From Eubacteriales bacterium (GTDB lineage Bacteria; Bacillota; Clostridia; Oscillospirales; CAG-272), in the NCBI GenBank assembly GCA_045612385.1, contig JAZKYZ010000022.1, forward strand, positions 12,631-76,630: a stretch of DNA of 64,000 nucleotides, read 5' to 3'. Shown here piece by piece: positions 1,597 through 22,520 of the stretch (the stretch's first letter is position 1; each line of letters starts with the position of its first letter). The notes beneath the pieces were generated by a model. The model was not told the DNA's origin, made no database searches, and worked only from the letters and a program-made list of their open reading frames with translations. The position numbers and the translations under genes were made by a program.

Positions 1597-2846
1597 TGCA
1601 ATACGGCTGTATTGGTGAAAAACTCTCGCACAGTTTTTCCGTAGAAATTCACGAGGCGTTAGGCTCGTACTCCTATACGCTTGAGGAACTCGCGCAAGGT
1701 GAGGTCAAGACCTTCCTTCAGCAGAGAAACTTTCAGGCGATTAATGTGACCATTCCATACAAAGAAACGGTGATTCCCTACCTCGACGAAATCGACGAGG
1801 TGGCAGAAGAAATCGGCGCAGTCAATACCATTGTCAATCGTGAGGGAAGGCTGATTGGATATAACACCGACTTTTACGGTTTATGCGCTCTCTTTTCGCA
1901 TATAGCGCTATCACCCTGTGGCAAAAAGGTAGCCATTCTCGGAACGGGGGGCACATCCAAGACGGCCTTTGCCGTAACTCGTTTTCTTGGGGCAAGGGAA
2001 ATCCTCGTTGTTTCACGCGCGCCAAGCGAGGGACAAATCAGTTATGAAACACTGACAAAGGAACACCCAGACACCGAAATTATCATCAACACGACTCCTG
2101 TCGGAATGTACCCAAACAGCGAAGGTTGTCCTCTTGCTTTAGATGGTTTTTCTTCCCTTTTTTTGGTGGTGGATGCCGTTTACAATCCTCTTTGCACAAC
2201 ACTTGTCAGGGAAGCAAAAAAACTTGGCATTTTGGCAGAGGGAGGACTCTATATGCTTGTTGCGCAGGCAGTCCGCGCAAGCGAACTCTTCTTGTCTATG
2301 ACCTACCCCGAAGCAACGATAGATCGTGTTTTTGATGAGATCGTGAAAAAGAAAGAAAATATCGTTCTTGTCGGTATGCCGACGAGTGGAAAAAGCACCG
2401 TAGGAAGGATGCTTTCCGTAGCAATGTCACGTCCATTTGTTGACACGGACGAGCTGTTTTATAAAAGATTCGGGATCTCTCCTGAAGAACATATAGAAAA
2501 ATACGGCGAGGAGAGTTTTCGCGAAAAGGAAAGTCTTATCTGCCGTGAGGTTTCCTCAAATCTTGGCTGTGTGATTGCGACAGGGGGAGGCGTTGTACTT
2601 CGTGAAGGCAACCTTCACGCTCTTTCGCAAAACGGAACCATCGTCTTTCTTGACCGTCCCTTAGAGGACCTCATCCCGTCTGACAGTCACCCTCTTTCCC
2701 GAACGCCGGAGGCGCTCGCAATGCGATATCACGAAAGGATCGACAAATATCTCTCCTTCGCCGACATTACGGTGCGTGGCTCGCATACGGCAGAGGAAAC
2801 CGTCAGGATTATATTAGATAGAATTCAACAGAGGAATTCCAAATGA
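1596..2846 (+). CDS. aroE: bifunctional shikimate dehydrogenase / shikimate kinase fusion
   Basis: N-terminal about 255 aa is AroE-like (IGEKLSHSFS, NVTIPYKE, GYNTD, ILGTGGTSK). The C-terminal about 160 aa carries a shikimate kinase P-loop (IVLVGMPTSGKSTVGR). The ATG at 1596 shares one base with the aroC TGA; a GTG at 1593 is also in frame. Confidence 0.85.
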   Translation: MQYGCIGEKLSHSFSVEIHEALGSYSYTLEELAQGEVKTFLQQRNFQAINVTIPYKETVIPYLDEIDEVAEEIGAVNTIVNREGRLIGYNTDFYGLCALFSHIALSPCGKKVAILGTGGTSKTAFAVTRFLGAREILVVSRAPSEGQISYETLTKEHPDTEIIINTTPVGMYPNSEGCPLALDGFSSLFLVVDAVYNPLCTTLVREAKKLGILAEGGLYMLVAQAVRASELFLSMTYPEATIDRVFDEIVKKKENIVLVGMPTSGKSTVGRMLSVAMSRPFVDTDELFYKRFGISPEEHIEKYGEESFREKESLICREVSSNLGCVIATGGGVVLREGNLHALSQNGTIVFLDRPLEDLIPSDSHPLSRTPEALAMRYHERIDKYLSFADITVRGSHTAEETVRIILDRIQQRNSK

Positions 2847-3289
2847 AATTGTTTATCATCAACGGACCGAACCTGAATATGCTCGGCATCCGTGAACCAG
2901 AACTTTACGGCTCACAAACCTATTCCGACCTCCTATCGAAAATTGTCGAGTATGCAAAGGCGAAGCAAATCGCCGTCGAGTGTTATCAATCCAACCACGA
3001 GGGTGACCTTGTGGACTATATTCAAAAGGCATATTTTGAAGGAGCAGACGGCATTGTGATCAATCCCGGAGCATATACGCATACCTCAATCGCGCTTCTG
3101 GATGCGATTTTGGCAGTATCTCTGCCTGTGGTAGAGGTACATATTTCCGACCTCTCGGAGCGTGAGGATTTTCGCAAGGTGAGTTACATTCGCACATCGT
3201 GTGTCGCAAGCATTATCGGACACGGCACAAAGGGTTATTTAGAAGCCATAGATACCCTTTGCGCGCATTTGGGGGTGGAACGGGCGTGA
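2843..3289 (+). CDS. aroQ: type II 3-dehydroquinate dehydratase
   Basis: MKLFIINGPNLNMLGIREPELYG and HISDLSEREDFR motifs; ATGA overlap with the upstream gene. Confidence 0.95.
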   Translation: MKLFIINGPNLNMLGIREPELYGSQTYSDLLSKIVEYAKAKQIAVECYQSNHEGDLVDYIQKAYFEGADGIVINPGAYTHTSIALLDAILAVSLPVVEVHISDLSEREDFRKVSYIRTSCVASIIGHGTKGYLEAIDTLCAHLGVERA

Positions 3290-4506
3290 CGTATACCATA
3301 CTTCCCTCCTTTGCCAGAGGACACATAGATGCCCCAAAAAGCAAAAGCATTTCGCACCGTGTGGCGATTCTTTCGGCATTTGCAAATGGCACAAGTCAAA
3401 TACGTGGCATATCTATGTGCGAGGATGTGAAGGCGACGCTTTCCTCTCTCTCCACGCTTGGGGTGCATTTTGAGAGGACGGAAGATTGCCTGACGGTATC
3501 GGGAAAGGATATTTTTTCGTGCGAGCCGAGCGCTCCCTTATCGGTAGGCGCAAGCGCAAGCACCCTGCGTTTTCTCATTCCTCTCGCTCTTCTTTTAAAA
3601 TGCGAGATGACCTTTGTAGGAGAACCTTCGCTCTTTTGCCGTCCACTTACCGTTTATGAGGAACTATTCGCATCCCTTCGCTGTCCCTTTCGTGTGGAAG
3701 AGAACCGTTTACATGTAAATACGAGCGCTTTCGGAGAACTTCCCGAAGTCCTGCAAGTGGACGCCGACATCTCCAGCCAATTCATTACGGGACTGCTTTT
3801 CCTGTACGCCCTCTCGGGTGGTGGCAAAATTGTCCTTTCCAAAAAAGTGGCATCTCGCCCATACATTGACCTTACCCTATACACCCTATCGCTCTTTGGC
3901 GTACGTGCTTTTTTTGAAGGAGAGCATACCATTGTTATCCCAAAGGGACAAAAACTCGTTTCGTCCACAATGGATGTGGAAGGGGACGATTCCGGTAGTG
4001 CCTATGTCGAAGCGCTCAATCTTCTCGGTGGCGAGGTGACAATCGGTGGACTACCGAAGAGCACGTTTCAAGGGGACCATATCTATCACGAACTTTTCCC
4101 CCTGTTAGAAAAGGGAGCGCCTGTTTTAGATATTGTGGCCTGCCCAGACCTTGCGCCTATACTGATGGCTTTGGCATCTCATTTTCACGGCGCTACCCTT
4201 CTTTCGACCGACCGTCTTAAAATCAAGGAAAGCGATCGCGCGACAGCAATGGCAACGGAGCTTTCAAAGTTTGGCGCAAATATTGAACTTTGCCAAAACA
4301 AAATTGTCATTCATCCGTCCAATTTGCATTCGCCGACCGAGAAACTCAACGGACACAGAGATCACCGAATTGTGATGGCGCTTTCTGTTCTCTTGACAAG
4401 ATACGGTGGACAAATTACAGACGGAGAAGCCGTAGCAAAAAGCTATCCTCAATTTTTCCAAGATTTACAAAGGCTCGGTATTGAGATACATTCCGAGAGG
4501 AGATAA
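3286..4506 (+). CDS. aroA: 3-phosphoshikimate 1-carboxyvinyltransferase (EPSP synthase)
   Basis: KSISHRVAILSAF, GASASTLRFL and DHRIVMA motifs. The likely start is the GTG at 3286 overlapping the aroQ stop (GTGA). The longer track ORF from 3199 lies inside aroQ. Confidence 0.9.
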   Translation: MTYTILPSFARGHIDAPKSKSISHRVAILSAFANGTSQIRGISMCEDVKATLSSLSTLGVHFERTEDCLTVSGKDIFSCEPSAPLSVGASASTLRFLIPLALLLKCEMTFVGEPSLFCRPLTVYEELFASLRCPFRVEENRLHVNTSAFGELPEVLQVDADISSQFITGLLFLYALSGGGKIVLSKKVASRPYIDLTLYTLSLFGVRAFFEGEHTIVIPKGQKLVSSTMDVEGDDSGSAYVEALNLLGGEVTIGGLPKSTFQGDHIYHELFPLLEKGAPVLDIVACPDLAPILMALASHFHGATLLSTDRLKIKESDRATAMATELSKFGANIELCQNKIVIHPSNLHSPTEKLNGHRDHRIVMALSVLLTRYGGQITDGEAVAKSYPQFFQDLQRLGIEIHSERR

Positions 4507-7994: not shown

Positions 7995-8714
7995 ATGAAG
8001 ATTTTAGCATTTGAAAGCAGCGCCAAAACGGCATCCGTCGCCCTCTCGGACGACGGCAGACTTCTTGCCTCTATGACCGTAGATGCCGGTCTGACACACA
8101 GTGAAATTCTTTTGCCGATGGCAGAGGACATATTAAAAGAAGCGAAGGTTTCCTTTGATGAGATTGACGGTTATGCCGTCACAACGGGGCCAGGTAGCTT
8201 TACCGGAATCCGAATCGGAGTAGCAACGGTCAAGGGGCTCGCCTTTGGTCGTGAGAAGCCTTGCTTCGGCATTTCCTCCCTGATGGGACTCGCATACAAT
8301 CTCAAGGGACTTCGTGGAATCTTTGTCCCGGTAATGGACTCTCGGCGAAACGAATGTTATACGGCAATTTTTTCGTCCGACGGCGAGAAAATTGTCAGGC
8401 TATGCGAGGATACGCAGATGCGTATTGTGGACCTCGCCCCGATTCTTTCCCAGTATTCAAATACTCCCATTTACCTGGTCGGAGATGCCTATGAGAAGGC
8501 AAAGTCCCTTCTCACCCCTCTGGGAATATTGACAGAGGTCACCCCTCCCGCTATGCGTCTTGCCAGTGCGACATCTCTTTTATGGATTGCGCAAGAGGGC
8601 ATAGCAACGGGACAATATCAAAATGACAGCGAGCTGACGGCAGTATATCTGAAGCCTGCCCAAGCAGAGCGCGAACGATTGGAAAAAGAAAAACAAACAC
8701 AAGGAGAAATATAA
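7995..8714 (+). CDS. tsaB: tRNA t6A37 biosynthesis protein TsaB
   Basis: MKILAFESS... and GPGSFTGIRIGVATVKGLA motifs; adjacent to tsaE. Confidence 0.85.
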   Translation: MKILAFESSAKTASVALSDDGRLLASMTVDAGLTHSEILLPMAEDILKEAKVSFDEIDGYAVTTGPGSFTGIRIGVATVKGLAFGREKPCFGISSLMGLAYNLKGLRGIFVPVMDSRRNECYTAIFSSDGEKIVRLCEDTQMRIVDLAPILSQYSNTPIYLVGDAYEKAKSLLTPLGILTEVTPPAMRLASATSLLWIAQEGIATGQYQNDSELTAVYLKPAQAERERLEKEKQTQGEI

Positions 8715-14903: not shown

Positions 14904-15055
14904 TGTTCTACCTCCATTTAAATTCAAATAAAAAATCCCTTCCGGCATAAAGACATAACTATACCGAGAAAGGACACACAAACAAAATATTTGATTTGAT
15001 GTCGCCTCGGCAGGAAAGCTATGCTTTTACTGGAACCTGCTGTCTTAGGATAACA
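14904..15055 (-). promoter_or_regulatory. ribosomal protein L10 leader (autoregulatory attenuator), putative
   Basis: About 150-nt 5' UTR between a consensus promoter and rplJ. It contains CCUAAGACAGCAGG...CCUGCCGAGG helices and a terminator-like hairpin (UCCUUUCUCGGUAU/AUGCCGGAAGGGA) followed by U6 just before the SD. Confidence 0.55.
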
Positions 15056-15060
15056 CAAGT

Positions 15061-15089
15061 ATTATACACGATTGAACGCTGTTTGTCAA
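15061..15089 (-). promoter_or_regulatory. consensus promoter for rplJL
   Basis: Minus strand: TTGACA (15089-84), 17-nt spacer, TG-extended TATAAT (15066-61). Confidence 0.75.
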
Positions 15090-19859: not shown

Positions 19860-19881
19860 TTTCTGCGTCCTTTTGTTTTGG
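19842..19881. terminator. bidirectional terminator shared by tRNA-Gln and repeat copy B
   Basis: CCAAAACAAAAGGACGCA-TTTC-TGCGTCCTTTTGTTTTGG; the GC core is flanked by U-runs in both orientations. Confidence 0.8.
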
Positions 19882-19953
19882 CAGGGGTAGCTGGATTCGG
19901 ACCAACGAATGCAGGAGTCAAAGTCCTGTGCCTTACCGCTTGGCTATACCCCT
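19879..19953 (-). tRNA. tRNA-Gln (anticodon UUG), atypical
   Basis: The 75-nt cloverleaf is AGGGGUA UA GCC AAGCGGUAA GGC A CAGGA CUUUGAC UCCUG CAUUC GUUGG UCCGAAU CCAGC UACCCCU G CCA. CCA is encoded. It has an A1-U72 pair and C at position 55. Confidence 0.8.
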
Positions 19954-20130: not shown

Positions 20131-20168
20131 AAAAAAGGGACACCTAAAGCTTTGGGTGTCCCTTTATC
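20131..20168. terminator. bidirectional hairpin terminator
   Basis: AAAGGGACACC/GGTGTCCCTTT stem. It is preceded by A7, which gives U7 on the minus strand, and followed by TTTAT. Confidence 0.7.
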
Positions 20169-20188: not shown

Positions 20189-20217
20189 TTGACAAAGATG
20201 TAATCTTTGTGTATAAT
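20189..20217 (+). promoter_or_regulatory. consensus promoter driving the tRNA-mimic RNA and downstream ORF
   Basis: TTGACA (20189-94), 17-nt spacer, TG-extended TATAAT (20212-17). Confidence 0.8.
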
Positions 20218-20223
20218 AAAAAT

Positions 20224-20421
20224 GTGCTAATGGTGCTTACTTCATGTGGAAAGCGCAATAAGTGCCATATTTTCACACGGGCGGTTGCTATTCGGGTTTA
20301 CTTCTAACTTGTAAGGGCCGGAGGTTGTGGGTTCAAATCCCACCCTGTCCCACAGGGCAGGTGGCGCAACGGTAGCGCACCGGAATGGTTAATCCGGAAT
20401 TTTCATCCGCCCACCTTTTTT
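20224..20421 (+). ncRNA. structured RNA with circularly permuted, acceptor-capped tRNA-like core (YrlA / bacterial Y-RNA-like)
   Basis: 5' hairpin 20230-39/20259-68. Closing helix GGGCGG (20279-84)/CCGCCC (20407-12). The core at 20322-97 runs in this order: variable AGGUU, T arm GUGGG-UUCAAAU-CCCAC, acceptor 3' strand CCUGUCC, cap CACA, acceptor 5' strand GGGCAGG, UG, D arm GCGC-AACGGUA-GCGC, A, hairpin CCGGA-AUGGUUAA-UCCGG. U6 at 20416-21. Ends are predicted only. Confidence 0.65.
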
Positions 20422-20445
20422 AAATGATTGTTTTGGGAGGGAAAT

Positions 20446-22476
20446 ATGAAAAGCATTTTTGAAAAGTTTTTATTTTCCAAAGGGTATCTTATCGGCAAAG
20501 AAGTGTCGGAATATGCTTTTGAGTACGCTTTTGCAATGGCAAATATGTTTGGCGTTCGCCTTGTGCGTGGGCGTGAATATGCTTCGCAAGAGCATTTGGA
20601 ATTTCTGTCGCAAGAAATGGGCCGAGATGTACCTCCCTCTTTTTATCGTGGTTTCCCTGAGAGTGTAAAAAAACTCTCACGCGCCGAACTTTTCTTTGAC
20701 CAACTCCTCCATTATACCAAAACATACGGTTTTGGAGATTTTGAAAATCCTGATTATTCACGGTTTGAGGAAGATTTTGAGAGATGCGCTTTTAAGGAGG
20801 ACGTCACCCCTCGTGATTTTTCTATAATTAAAGAAGAAGAAGCCAAAGAGATTCTCACGTCGTTTGTAGAAGCGTTGCTGAATGGCTCGCGCCCACTCTC
20901 CACCGACCAATATAATGTGGTTCTGTCCTACTACAAGGAATACGAAGCTCTGCCCTGCGCTCCACACGCAAAGAATACAGCCATTCGTCTGTATGTAGAT
21001 ACCGGTGTGCTTGATTTTTGCGATTCGCTCTGGCTCTCAGACGTCATCAAGGTATGCGCCGAGATACAATATCGCAAGTATTTCAGCGAGGATCTTTGTG
21101 ATTTGCACCTGAAGGGTGCTGATAGAAAACTTCTTGCCGACCTCATTCATAAATTGATTGCTGATGGCAAGAGCAACATCACCGAGTGTTACGAAAAGAA
21201 GAAACTGTGGCAGGGAATGCTCCATCACATTCACCTGAAACCACAGAGCGAAGAGGAAATCGAATTCCTGAAGGCGATGCGTACTCGTGGAAATCACTCC
21301 ATCTATTCCACCGTAGAGCGCGCGCTTAAAAAGGGGGATATCCCCTTTGCCGTAACGACACTGTATGAAGGCAAGGGTGGTGGCGCTGTGCTTCGCGAGC
21401 TCAATTATCTCGTCAGTCGCGCCGAGGACAAAAACGATATTCGCTTTATTCTCTCACATATAGACGCCTCCCCAATTTTGCTCTTACAGTTATATTTGTC
21501 CTATATCACTTACGCCTTTGAGGGTGGCAGAGTTTTCCGTTTCACAAGATTTAACAGACTTTGCACGCACAATGAAACCGAAGAAGAAATTGAACACCGT
21601 CGCTCCAGACTGGATGAGAAAACGGTCGCATATCTGCGCGAATACTGCGAGGAAAAATTAAAGGAAATTCTCTGTGGCAAGGTAGGAAAGGTATACATTG
21701 ACAAGGAGATGTATCAAATCGCTCTGCCGATTTCCGAAGCGAGCACTAAGGGTGGCATAGGCGTTCTCCCACGTGGCTCACGCTTGCCCCTGCCAAAGGG
21801 AAAGAAAATACGCGCCTTCACCTATTGGGAGCAGGTCAACGACATTGACCTTTCTGTGCTCGGCTTTTCAGAGGACGGAACAATGAGCGAGTTTTCCTGG
21901 CGCACAATGTGGGAAAATCAAGGAAAATGCATCACCTTCTCAGGTGACCAGACCTCTGGCTTCCAGGGTGGCTCGGAATATTACGATATCGTATTTGACG
22001 CATTTACCAAGAAATATCCCAATACAGCGTACCTTGTCTTTGCTAACAATGTCTTTTCAAATATGCATTTCAATGAATGCGTATGTCGCGCAGGTTATAT
22101 GATGCGTGATACTCGTGATAGTGGACAGGTATTTGAGCCAAAGACGGTGGAATCGTCCTTTGTGATAGACGCCGACAGCACCTCAGCGTACCTTTTCGGC
22201 ATTGACCTGCTTCGGCGTGAGTTTGTTTGGCTTAATATGGCGAATCGCTCCGAGATGCACATTGCAGCGCTTCAGAACGCCTCCTTCCTTCTCGATTACT
22301 TCCATATCACCGAGCATATGAATGTCGGCAAGTTTTTTGAATGGATGGCAAAAGAGGTGGTTTCCGACCCGATGGACGCCGATATTGTCCTTGCTACGCA
22401 CGAGGTGCCACACCGTGAAGATGCTGAAGTAATCCGTCGTTTTGAATACGAAAAGATCCTCAAATATTTAGGATAA
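20446..22476 (+). CDS. 676-aa protein: N-terminal helical TROVE-like (Ro60/Rsr-like) region fused to a C-terminal TerD-fold domain
   Basis: SD GGGAGGG lies 4 nt before the ATG at 20446. Residues ~455-600 fit the TerD pattern (FTYWE..DIDLSVLGF..FSW..ITFSGDQTSGFQGGSEYYDIVF..YLVFANNVFS..CRAGYM..SAYLFGIDLLRREFVWLNM). Residues 225-355 carry TROVE-like motifs in order. The CDS itself is confident; the domain assignment of the N-terminus is inferential. Confidence 0.6.
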   Translation: MKSIFEKFLFSKGYLIGKEVSEYAFEYAFAMANMFGVRLVRGREYASQEHLEFLSQEMGRDVPPSFYRGFPESVKKLSRAELFFDQLLHYTKTYGFGDFENPDYSRFEEDFERCAFKEDVTPRDFSIIKEEEAKEILTSFVEALLNGSRPLSTDQYNVVLSYYKEYEALPCAPHAKNTAIRLYVDTGVLDFCDSLWLSDVIKVCAEIQYRKYFSEDLCDLHLKGADRKLLADLIHKLIADGKSNITECYEKKKLWQGMLHHIHLKPQSEEEIEFLKAMRTRGNHSIYSTVERALKKGDIPFAVTTLYEGKGGGAVLRELNYLVSRAEDKNDIRFILSHIDASPILLLQLYLSYITYAFEGGRVFRFTRFNRLCTHNETEEEIEHRRSRLDEKTVAYLREYCEEKLKEILCGKVGKVYIDKEMYQIALPISEASTKGGIGVLPRGSRLPLPKGKKIRAFTYWEQVNDIDLSVLGFSEDGTMSEFSWRTMWENQGKCITFSGDQTSGFQGGSEYYDIVFDAFTKKYPNTAYLVFANNVFSNMHFNECVCRAGYMMRDTRDSGQVFEPKTVESSFVIDADSTSAYLFGIDLLRREFVWLNMANRSEMHIAALQNASFLLDYFHITEHMNVGKFFEWMAKEVVSDPMDADIVLATHEVPHREDAEVIRRFEYEKILKYLG

Positions 22477-22481
22477 AAATG

Positions 22482-22520
22482 TCCCCACTGATGATTCGTT
22501 CGGTGGGGATATAATTTTTT
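22482..22520 (+). terminator. intrinsic terminator
   Basis: TCCCCACTG/CGGTGGGGA stem followed by a T-rich run (ATAATTTTTTATTTT). Confidence 0.8.

Follow-up and report, generated by a model that had tools for sequence, protein, structure and literature searches.

The 64,000-nt stretch of contig JAZKYZ010000022.1 from an Eubacteriales bacterium (the whole stretch is referred to as the window) carries, from position 20224 of the forward strand onwards, two small structured RNAs followed by a gene for a 676-amino-acid protein. The longer RNA is supported as a circularly permuted, closed-acceptor tRNA mimic. Comparison with related loci established the structure of the RNAs, their membership of one family, the modular build of that family, its genomic linkage to a protein family, and a geometry of co-transcription. 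No Ro60 identity was detected for the partner protein. The locus probably encodes a ribonucleoprotein that resembles the Ro60/Y RNA particle but is built with a different protein. An earlier note, made from the letters of the window alone, had described the RNA as a YrlA-like tRNA mimic preceding a gene with Ro60-like motifs.

Structure of the long RNA

The elements of the long RNA (20279-20412) are the following:

20279..20284, forward strand: P1, 5' strand GGGCGG; pairs with CCGCCC at 20407-20412; 6 of 6 pairs covary
20285..20290, forward strand: 5' internal loop UUGCUA (family consensus CAGCUA); faces the 3' internal loop AUUUUCAU at 20399-20406 (family consensus GAUAUC)
20291..20298, forward strand: P2, 5' strand UUCGGGUU; pairs with AAUCCGGA at 20391-20398; 98 % of cells paired, 7 of 8 pairs covary
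20298..20304, forward strand: UUACUUC motif; in 91 of 91 units, with several columns invariant; contains YUAY
20318..20321, forward strand: P3, 5' strand CCGG; pairs with CCGG at 20380-20383; 4 of 4 pairs covary, 88 % of cells paired
20322..20326, forward strand: variable loop AGGUU; U48 covaries with A15
20327..20343, forward strand: T arm GUGGG-UUCAAAU-CCCAC; stem paired in 99 % of cells
20344..20361, forward strand: closed acceptor hairpin of 7 bp, CCUGUCC (20344-50), CACA (20351-54) and GGGCAGG (20355-61)
20362..20379, forward strand: U8-G9 (20362-63), D arm GCGC-AACGGUA-GCGC (20364-78) and A26 (20379)

All coordinates that the earlier note had assigned to the tRNA elements, to the outer helix GGGCGG/CCGCCC and to the U6 tract following it were correct when compared with the sequence. 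P3 is the analogue of the anticodon stem. In the acceptor hairpin all 7 pairs covary and 98 % of the cells are paired, while the cap loop differs in sequence and length among loci and a conserved CCA is absent. The GCUA of the 5' internal loop is invariant in 39 of 39 long units, and AGCUA was found in 86 of the 91 units.

Covariation was tested on an alignment of 39 long units for six helices (P1, P2, P3, T arm, acceptor and D arm). Standard pairs were formed in 95.2 % of the cells, compared to 36-45 % when the partners were slid by 1-3 columns. Compensatory double changes occurred in 29 of 34 pairs, and the observed values were reached by none of 500 shuffles. Covariation and conservation of these helices in relatives had been named beforehand as a test of the proposed structure. 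RNAalifold independently returned P1, P2, the T arm and the acceptor from the 39 long units. Furthermore, a covariance model (R2) built from 36 long units, from which the window and its closest relative (L001) had been excluded, found 20279-20411 with 92.2 bits and an E-value of 3e-19. This was the sole match in 64 kb on both strands, and its score lies within the range obtained for family members (66-123 bits). Covariation of the T, acceptor and D helices, together with the score of this leave-out model, supported the Y-RNA-like design of a permuted, acceptor-capped tRNA mimic.

The tertiary core of the tRNA fold is conserved as well. The Levitt pair 15:48 is G:C in 22 and A:U in 15 of the 39 long units, with 2 exceptions, while U8, A14, G18, A21, G53, T54, T55, C56, A58 and C61 are invariant in all of them. 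As the Levitt pair covaries and the elbow residues do not change, the L-shaped elbow is under selection, in agreement with what had been argued from the single sequence.

One element of the initial drawing did not survive comparison. In the window, CCGGA and UCCGG (20380-84/20393-97) could form a local hairpin like that of an anticodon arm, yet only 50 % of its cells are paired across the 39 homologues, which equals the shuffle mean. Its bases pair over a long range instead, in P2 (UUCGGGUU/AAUCCGGA) and P3 (CCGG/CCGG), and the alignment to the Rfam YrlA model selects the same P2 pairing and topology. A minimum free energy (MFE) fold of the single sequence recovered the T, acceptor and D arms and P1, with the P2/P3 region mis-paired and a z-score of -1.9; the MFE fold of one sequence needs comparative data to be informative.

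The tRNA-like content could also reflect descent from a tRNA gene, as a pseudo-tRNA, a mobile-element remnant or a permuted gene processed to a functional tRNA, with the neighbouring protein gene being coincidental. Such an origin is highly improbable. The Rfam tRNA model (RF00005) does match 20355-20413, though below threshold (24.5 versus 29 bits) and in a chimeric alignment, a tRNA-Gln gene lies some 270 nt away on the other strand, and phage copies of the RNA are found in tRNA arrays. ARAGORN, however, made no call at the RNA locus and listed only the tRNA-Gln on the opposite strand (19879-19953). The RNA has no anticodon loop, its anticodon-stem analogue runs into the scaffold, its acceptor loops are variable and it has no CCA. 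A decaying relic is ruled out because the compensatory covariation is strong. Moreover, the RNA is linked to one protein family across dozens of genomes assigned to different taxa, and no integrase or transposase recurred among the neighbours of 81 loci.

A modular RNA family with a constant scaffold

As a source of RNA units, 80 genome loci coding for homologues of the partner protein were collected; isolate-strain records are present among the related loci (L009, L016, L024, L030 and L051). The 800 nt preceding the gene contained, on its own strand, a total of 127 motif-defined units in 67 of the 80 genome loci, with 1-4 copies per locus. All follow one scaffold order: P1, AGCUA, P2 (7-8 bp), UUACUUC, a variable apex, AAU, the 3' strand of P2, GAUAUC and the 3' strand of P1. 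What differs is the apex. The long class (41 units of ~125-135 nt) carries the permuted tRNA-like module, a further 8 units carry a T arm only, and the short class (67 units of ~55-80 nt) ends in a loop or simple hairpin. Locus L066 (~2793-2925) has a tRNA body in normal order, with D, anticodon and T arms, on the same scaffold, the scaffold stem replacing the acceptor stem; positions 6-65 of the Rfam tRNA model match this unit with 49.9 bits. Thus one scaffold has received grafts of both tRNA topologies. The RNAs form a conserved modular family in which the scaffold is constant and the apex varies.

The short units are structured in the same way. In 52 aligned short units P1 and P2 are paired in 92 % of the cells, against 33-45 % in the slid controls, and 13 of 14 pairs covary. 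The window contains one such unit immediately 5' of the long RNA:

20224..20276, forward strand: RNA unit 1, short scaffold-only form; aligns with 51 other short units
Parts of unit 1, forward strand: P1 GUG 20224-26/CAC 20274-76; CUA 20227-29; P2 20230-37/20261-68; UUACUUC 20237-43
20279..20412, forward strand: RNA unit 2, long form; scaffold with the permuted tRNA-like module inserted at the apex

The 10-bp hairpin at 20230-68, which had been seen as no more than a hairpin preceding the tRNA-like core, is in fact part of unit 1 (20224-20276), a separate short RNA of the same family. A covariance model for the scaffold (R1) scored unit 1 with 37.4 bits, a value that holds by construction since unit 1 is a row of the R1 seed. 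R1 misses the long unit of the window, owing to the 100-nt apical insertion. Short units had no match in Rfam at E ≤1. Up to six tandem scaffold units were observed in one leader in low-GC relatives (L276, 2479-2971; L272, 1520-1865), all of the short type without the tRNA-like module.

Linkage of the RNAs to a protein gene

The association between RNA and protein was found from both sides. Starting from the protein, models R1 and R2 together detected units in 72 of the 80 genome loci; of the 8 loci without units, two had less than 220 nt of upstream sequence and one had an assembly gap. Six contigs from viral collections, coding for proteins of 39-47 % identity and represented in no seed alignment, all had 3-6 units in tandem directly before the gene. 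From the side of the RNA, metagenome contigs were scanned with a DNA pattern, which yielded 73 stretches, 45 of them with model-validated units. The protein was encoded 13-192 nt downstream on the same strand in 30 of these 45 loci, and as 6 of the 45 lack room for it, in 30 of 39 testable loci. A scan of viral contigs with the 14-base pattern CAGCTAGN6TTACTTC was less productive: of 117 matches one was a real scaffold (L177) and the rest were due to chance.

In the window the RNAs and the protein gene are arranged between one promoter and one terminator:

20189..20217, forward strand: sigma-70 promoter; TTGACA at 20189-94, 17-nt spacer, TATAAT at 20212-17; 12 of 12 consensus positions
20416..20421, forward strand: U6 tract, 3 nt 3' of P1; read from the sequence
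20435..20441, forward strand: ribosome-binding site GGGAGGG of the partner gene; read from the sequence
20446..22476, forward strand: open reading frame (ORF) of the partner protein, 676 amino acids; starts 34 nt after P1 (20412 to 20446)
22479..22512, forward strand: intrinsic terminator closing the RNA-plus-protein unit; 13-bp stem followed by a T-run

Transcription is predicted to start around G20224, which coincides with the left boundary given in the earlier note. The stretch from the U6 tract to the ribosome-binding site is too short to hold a promoter, so that the RNAs and the ORF must share the promoter at 20189-20217. Evidently, they form one transcription unit and are co-transcribed. 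Promoter-like sites were found 5' of the first RNA unit in 23 of 64 related loci. The gap between the last unit and the start codon has a median of 38 nt.

Upstream of this unit a tRNA-Gln(UUG) gene (19879-19953, reverse strand) diverges from the RNA locus at a distance of ~270 nt and has its own promoter with 12 of 12 consensus positions (19999-19971, reverse strand). A strong 14-bp GC-containing hairpin, AAAGGGACACC...GGTGTCCCTTT (20134-20165, forward strand), lies between the two divergent promoters; flanked by A and T runs, it looks like a bidirectional terminator or insulator.

The position of the RNAs in a 5' leader raises the question whether they act in cis, as a site for autoregulation by the protein or as a tRNA-related sensor, controlling termination or translation. 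The units precede an ORF of the same orientation at a distance of 12-521 nt, in 21 of 67 loci the last of them is followed by a T-run, and in the window the U6 tract follows P1, with the ribosome-binding site 13 nt later. Possible roles of the U6 tract are leaky termination and marking of the 3' end. A terminator scan, however, called neither a classical nor a P1-based terminator between RNA and ORF, nor did any alternative pairing that involves the ribosome-binding site or a terminator emerge as conserved. A cis-regulatory role also agrees poorly with 1-6 tandem copies bearing different apical modules in one leader, with the units of locus L071, which lie ~2.6 kb from the gene, and with nine loci, mostly phage-like, that have the RNA without a partner ORF. 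Finally, a tRNA elbow that is preserved down to the covarying Levitt pair is what tRNA mimics acting in trans typically show. Taken together, an exclusively cis-acting function is considered rather improbable.

Relation to YrlA RNAs

YrlA RNAs have been defined by a Ro60 ortholog encoded within 4 kb on the same strand, a 5' GNCGAAN0-1G motif, a YUAY sequence starting the V region, and T, AS and D elements (Chen et al. 2014, PMC4201824). The GNCGAAN0-1G motif is the proposed contact with Rsr (Chen et al. 2014, PMC4201824). Further traits given for YrlA are binding by Rsr, pseudouridine 55 and dihydrouridine, and recognition as a substrate by RNase P and tRNA enzymes. At the gathering threshold Rfam reported nothing at the locus in the window, and none of 15 related loci reached the YrlA threshold. 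In a local scan in E-value mode the best match was that of the YrlA model (RF02553), which aligned to 20278-20416 over its positions 1-114, with 37.0 bits (gathering threshold 69) and an E-value of 1e-6. In this alignment the UUAC inside UUACUUC, and hence the YUAY present in 91 of 91 units, corresponds to CUAc of the model. The tRNA-like domain of YrlA is present as well, with V region, T arm, closed acceptor, D arm and conserved tertiary residues. GNCGAAN0-1G, on the other hand, occurs in the first 30 nt of none of 39 long and 52 short units, and nowhere in 20224-20421 of the window. A TROVE hidden Markov model (HMM) built from 28 Ro60/Rsr sequences matched no window ORF of at least 80 amino acids. 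With 37 against 69 bits, no GNCGAAN0-1G and no detectable Ro60 neighbour, membership of YrlA was rejected. The YrlA-class assignment of the earlier note thus holds for the tRNA-like domain, for YUAY and for the end-to-end alignment, and fails on the Rfam score and on the GNCGAAN0-1G motif.

Comparison with a genuine rsr locus (L282) pointed the same way. Model R2 matched the YrlA-type RNA upstream of this rsr gene with 36 bits over the tRNA-like module only, the positions of P2 and UUACUUC being deleted. Since the cross-match is confined to the module, the two families share the mimic and the overall architecture and differ in the presumed protein-binding scaffold. Long tRNA arrays were noted upstream of the genuine rsr genes (TROVE plus vWA) in L279 (1747-2465, 3690-3753) and L282 (70-2506). 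In both loci Rfam YrlA stayed below gathering, and the nematode stem-bulge (Y-RNA-type) model ceN72-3_ceN74-2 matched with 52.8 bits just upstream of the rsr gene of L279. Coverage of bacterial Y RNAs in Rfam appears patchy.

The likeness to YrlA is nevertheless extensive. Both RNAs have a terminal stem, an asymmetric internal loop, a second stem and YUAY, followed by the V region, T arm, closed acceptor and D arm. In both, the anticodon-stem analogue returns into the protein-binding stem (presumed to be so here), and the same tRNA tertiary residues are kept, including the Levitt covariation. A smaller neighbouring RNA lacking the tRNA body recalls YrlB, and versions with only a T arm resemble Yrn1 and the YrlB of M. 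smegmatis. As at rsr loci, the RNAs lie upstream and on the same strand of a gene for a large helical-repeat protein, RtcB is occasionally adjacent and copies exist in phages. Unlike YrlA, the family scores below the Rfam gathering threshold, has its own motifs AGCUA, UUACUUC and GAUAUC instead of GNCGAAN0-1G, and forms tandem arrays of up to six units.

The partner protein

The partner protein is composed of a conserved N-terminal part modelled with low confidence (residues 1-120), a helical repeat (~130-355), a TerD-like beta-sandwich (~413-600) and a small alpha/beta tail. AlphaFold2 (AF2) models had predicted local distance difference test (pLDDT) values of 82 for the full length and 88.5 for a domain-only model (residues 120-432). 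More than 800 homologues were found, mostly in Lachnospiraceae and other Clostridia. At E ≤1e-3 the family counts 2458 representatives at 50 % identity, mostly from Lachnospiraceae and other gut and rumen Clostridia.

Pfam assigned no family to the window protein. Among 60 relatives, 5 gave weak matches to Pfam TerD (PF02342; best E 0.007), and some GenBank records call relatives 'TerD family protein'. The C-terminal beta-sandwich has a TerD-like G-D-x-T-S-G...G-G-S-E...D motif. Unlike in the Ter system, TerB, TerC and TelA are not recurrent neighbours, and no RNA partner of TerD proteins was reported in the literature searched. NCBIfam NF041916, the MXAN_6230/SCO0854 RING-domain family (locus tags of Myxococcus xanthus and Streptomyces coelicolor), matched partially: residues 282-608 align with positions 385-715 at 104 bits, far under the cut-off of 600, and, unlike that family, the partner protein has no RING domain. 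The C-terminal half of the helical domain and the TerD-like domain have counterparts in the NF041916 family, and homologues of the C-terminal half were seen in Mycobacterium, Rhodococcus, Rhodobacter and Ruegeria phages. PHROG 33734 also matches the partner protein. PADLOC gave no family-wide match; a BrxB identity suggested by it was spurious (18.8 bits in 1 of 60 members).

The downstream gene had initially been thought to carry Ro60-like motifs. This came down to one short, non-significant resemblance (LLRNL...NPI..L..L..Y), and neither TROVE nor vWA was found. If the resemblance reflected homology, the RNA would be a true YrlA Y RNA and the gene a highly divergent Ro60/Rsr ortholog in an ordinary Ro60/Y RNA locus. 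The RNA speaks for this possibility to some extent, as the YrlA model aligned end to end at E 1e-6 and YUAY is present, and so does the rsr-like gene order, in which the RNAs precede a gene of their own orientation and RtcB adjoins now and then. The 37 bits against 69 and the absence of GNCGAAN0-1G from all 91 units contradict it. The proteins themselves were compared with the aid of a Ro60/Rsr profile made from human and Xenopus Ro60 and 26 bacterial Rsr relatives. Using hhalign, probabilities of 0.14 % (family profile A1), 0.56 % (A5) and 3.0 % (A6, helical domain only) were obtained. A5 and A6 shared one local alignment of 52-53 columns, located in either protein close to where the helical domain ends, in which 'KG..ALLRNLNYLLSRC...NPI.L.QLL..Y' of the family faces 'LT.LLRNLGNL.R.G...RIHPI..L.AL.TY' of TROVE; in shorter form, 'LLRNLNYLLSRC..NPI.L.QLL..Y' stands at a similar position to 'LLRNLGNL.R.G..RIHPI..L.AL.TY'. 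This recurring alignment is suggestive, though not significant.

Searches for the domains of Ro60 were negative. Pfam TROVE (PF05731) was found in none of 60 and none of 29 family members, permissive E-values included, and vWA (vWA_Ro60, PF25045) likewise had no match in the family, the C-terminal domain being a beta-sandwich with TerD-like features. By contrast, all 120 retrieved Rsr relatives have both PF05731 and PF25045. Searches of the PDB sequences, which include five distinct Ro60/Rsr/TROVE chain sequences, with the family profiles (hmmsearch) and with phmmer returned no Ro60. Ro60 itself folds into a ring of HEAT repeats. Among the top 50 PDB matches of Foldseek no Ro60 occurred for either AF2 model; those obtained were generic alpha-solenoids only (Pumilio, 14-3-3, PCI), with E-values of at least 0.012 for the full-length and at least 0.09 for the domain-only model. 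In BFVD, full-length phage homologues were found: a Siphoviridae 'putative tellurium resistant like protein' (E 5e-42, template modelling (TM) score 0.80), a protein of Campylobacter virus IBB35 and a 'cytoplasmic protein' of Lactobacillus phage LpeD. A TROVE protein of a crAss-like phage appeared in the same search as a weak match at rank 18 (E 0.036, probability 0.72, TM 0.19). On balance, an ordinary Ro60/Y RNA locus with a strongly diverged ortholog is regarded as unlikely.

Genomic neighbours and phage contexts

Neighbouring genes were surveyed by clustering 450 flanking ORFs of 81 loci. A single gene family, RtcB RNA ligase, exceeded 5 of the 81 loci, occurring in 8 of them on the same strand. 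In locus L004 the RtcB gene ends 4 nt before the first RNA unit. An RtcB query found nothing in the window. A ribosomal protein L10 leader (RF00557, 51.6 bits) at 14921-15067 on the reverse strand of the window is an ordinary cis-regulator unrelated to the RNA locus.

RNAs without the protein gene nearby, here called orphans, were found on nine metagenome contigs (L201, L205, L206, L210, L215, L227, L230, L262 and L269) and in L177, from IMG/VR. Their contexts are phage-like, with a terminase large subunit (L201), DnaB-like helicases (L227 and L230) and PHROG families of unknown function (L205 and L206). Several of the orphan scaffold RNAs sit within tRNA arrays; in L227 the order is tRNA-Tyr, Lys, Glu, scaffold RNA, Gln(UUG) and Leu. 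These orphans may be phage decoys or hijackers of the host protein.

tRNA-Gln(UUG) directly follows the orphan scaffold RNA in L227 (767-842) and L230 (467-541) and is present in L201. Its occurrence near the RNA of the window as well as near orphan RNAs may be a coincidence or a hint at the tRNA involved. Directly after the orphan RNA of L201, ARAGORN called a tRNA-??? with a 4-nt anticodon 'cgag' (8588-8677, reverse strand), the expanded anticodon region of which has UUUACU, resembling UUACUUC. Phage record MT835874 (L278) has tRNA-Met, tmRNA, tRNA-Trp, tRNA-Glu and tRNA-Met (710-1611) upstream of a partner homologue of 26 % identity (2294-4003); no scaffold RNA was found in this tRNA-array region. 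Around the homologue of Lactobacillus phage LpeD neither a scaffold RNA nor a tRNA was found nearby.

Proposed function and significance

The combination of linked RNAs and protein is best explained as a Ro60/Y-RNA-like ribonucleoprotein with a different protein. The RNAs would be freed from the leader, probably by excision, as stable small RNAs, and the encoded protein would bind them through the invariant loops of the scaffold. The scaffold would serve to anchor the protein, and the mimic with its L shape could tether or decoy enzymes that recognise tRNA, such as RtcB ligase, modification enzymes or nucleases. Damage, repair or surveillance of tRNA or other RNA, under stress or during phage conflict, would be the setting of such a particle.

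A number of observations weigh against this explanation. The putative binding of the RNAs by the protein is deduced from genomic linkage, and no recognised RNA-binding domain is present in the protein. Foldseek searches of the PDB with full-length and domain-only models gave no significant match. The leader position and the T-run in 21 of 67 loci also fit a cis-regulatory element, and RtcB adjoins in only ~10 % of the loci. In addition, 5 protein loci with adequate upstream sequence have no RNA unit at all, and the 9 RNA-bearing metagenome contigs have room for the partner gene and were negative in a search with the A1 HMM. Because of these contigs the pairing is not obligatory in cis.

Several known systems combine features found here. 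RtcB neighbours both rsr/yrlA and the pair of a Band-7 protein and b7a-tRNA (Wang et al. 2018, bioRxiv 10.1101/312249). In the latter, as proposed here, a tRNA-like non-coding RNA goes with a 'scaffold' protein other than Ro60, sometimes with RtcB, and it offers a precedent for exchange of the tRNA-mimic module between protein partners. Unlike the RNA described here, b7a-tRNA closely resembles an authentic tRNA and is not a permuted module in a scaffold of stems and internal loops, and its partner is a Band-7 protein. Unlike Rsr, the partner protein of the present family has a TerD-like domain and no detectable TROVE or vWA. The tRNA-like domain of tmRNA and viral 3' tRNA-like structures likewise use the L-shaped tRNA fold outside decoding. 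These mimics have a free CCA end and are aminoacylated, whereas in the present RNA, like in YrlA, a loop joins the two acceptor strands.

Tentatively, and at somewhat less than an even chance, it is proposed that the locus represents an undescribed class of ribonucleoproteins of Clostridia and their phages. Its protein would be unrelated to Ro60 or diverged past recognition, the scaffold of the RNA would bind this protein and the exchangeable apex would present the mimic, be it permuted, in normal order or a T arm only. Phages would use their orphan RNAs, and in some cases a copy of the protein, to hijack or neutralise the host particle. A literature search, which left earlier supplementary locus lists aside, found no published description of this RNA-protein pair. 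As Rfam 15 lacks the RNA family and Pfam lacks the protein, both components currently go without annotation.

To our knowledge, bacterial Y RNAs are known solely as partners of Ro60. A recognisable Ro60 is encoded by ~5 % of the bacterial genomes that had been sequenced (Chen et al. 2014, PMC4201824). If the proposed class is real, a protein scaffold combined with a tRNA-mimic RNA would be a recurrent solution for tRNA damage, repair and phage conflict, with at least three partners (Ro60, Band-7 and the protein described here). The same mimic design is found on a different conserved scaffold that is linked to a different protein family. This suggests that function depends on the tRNA mimic as the constant part, whereas one protein anchor can be exchanged for another. 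Comparison of Ro60/YrlA with this system could help to show what the mimic binds, and the natural variants of the apex (none, T arm, permuted and normal-order tRNA body) provide a ready-made series for structure-function studies. That orphan copies occur within tRNA arrays of phages points to a role in a conflict between host and phage over tRNAs.

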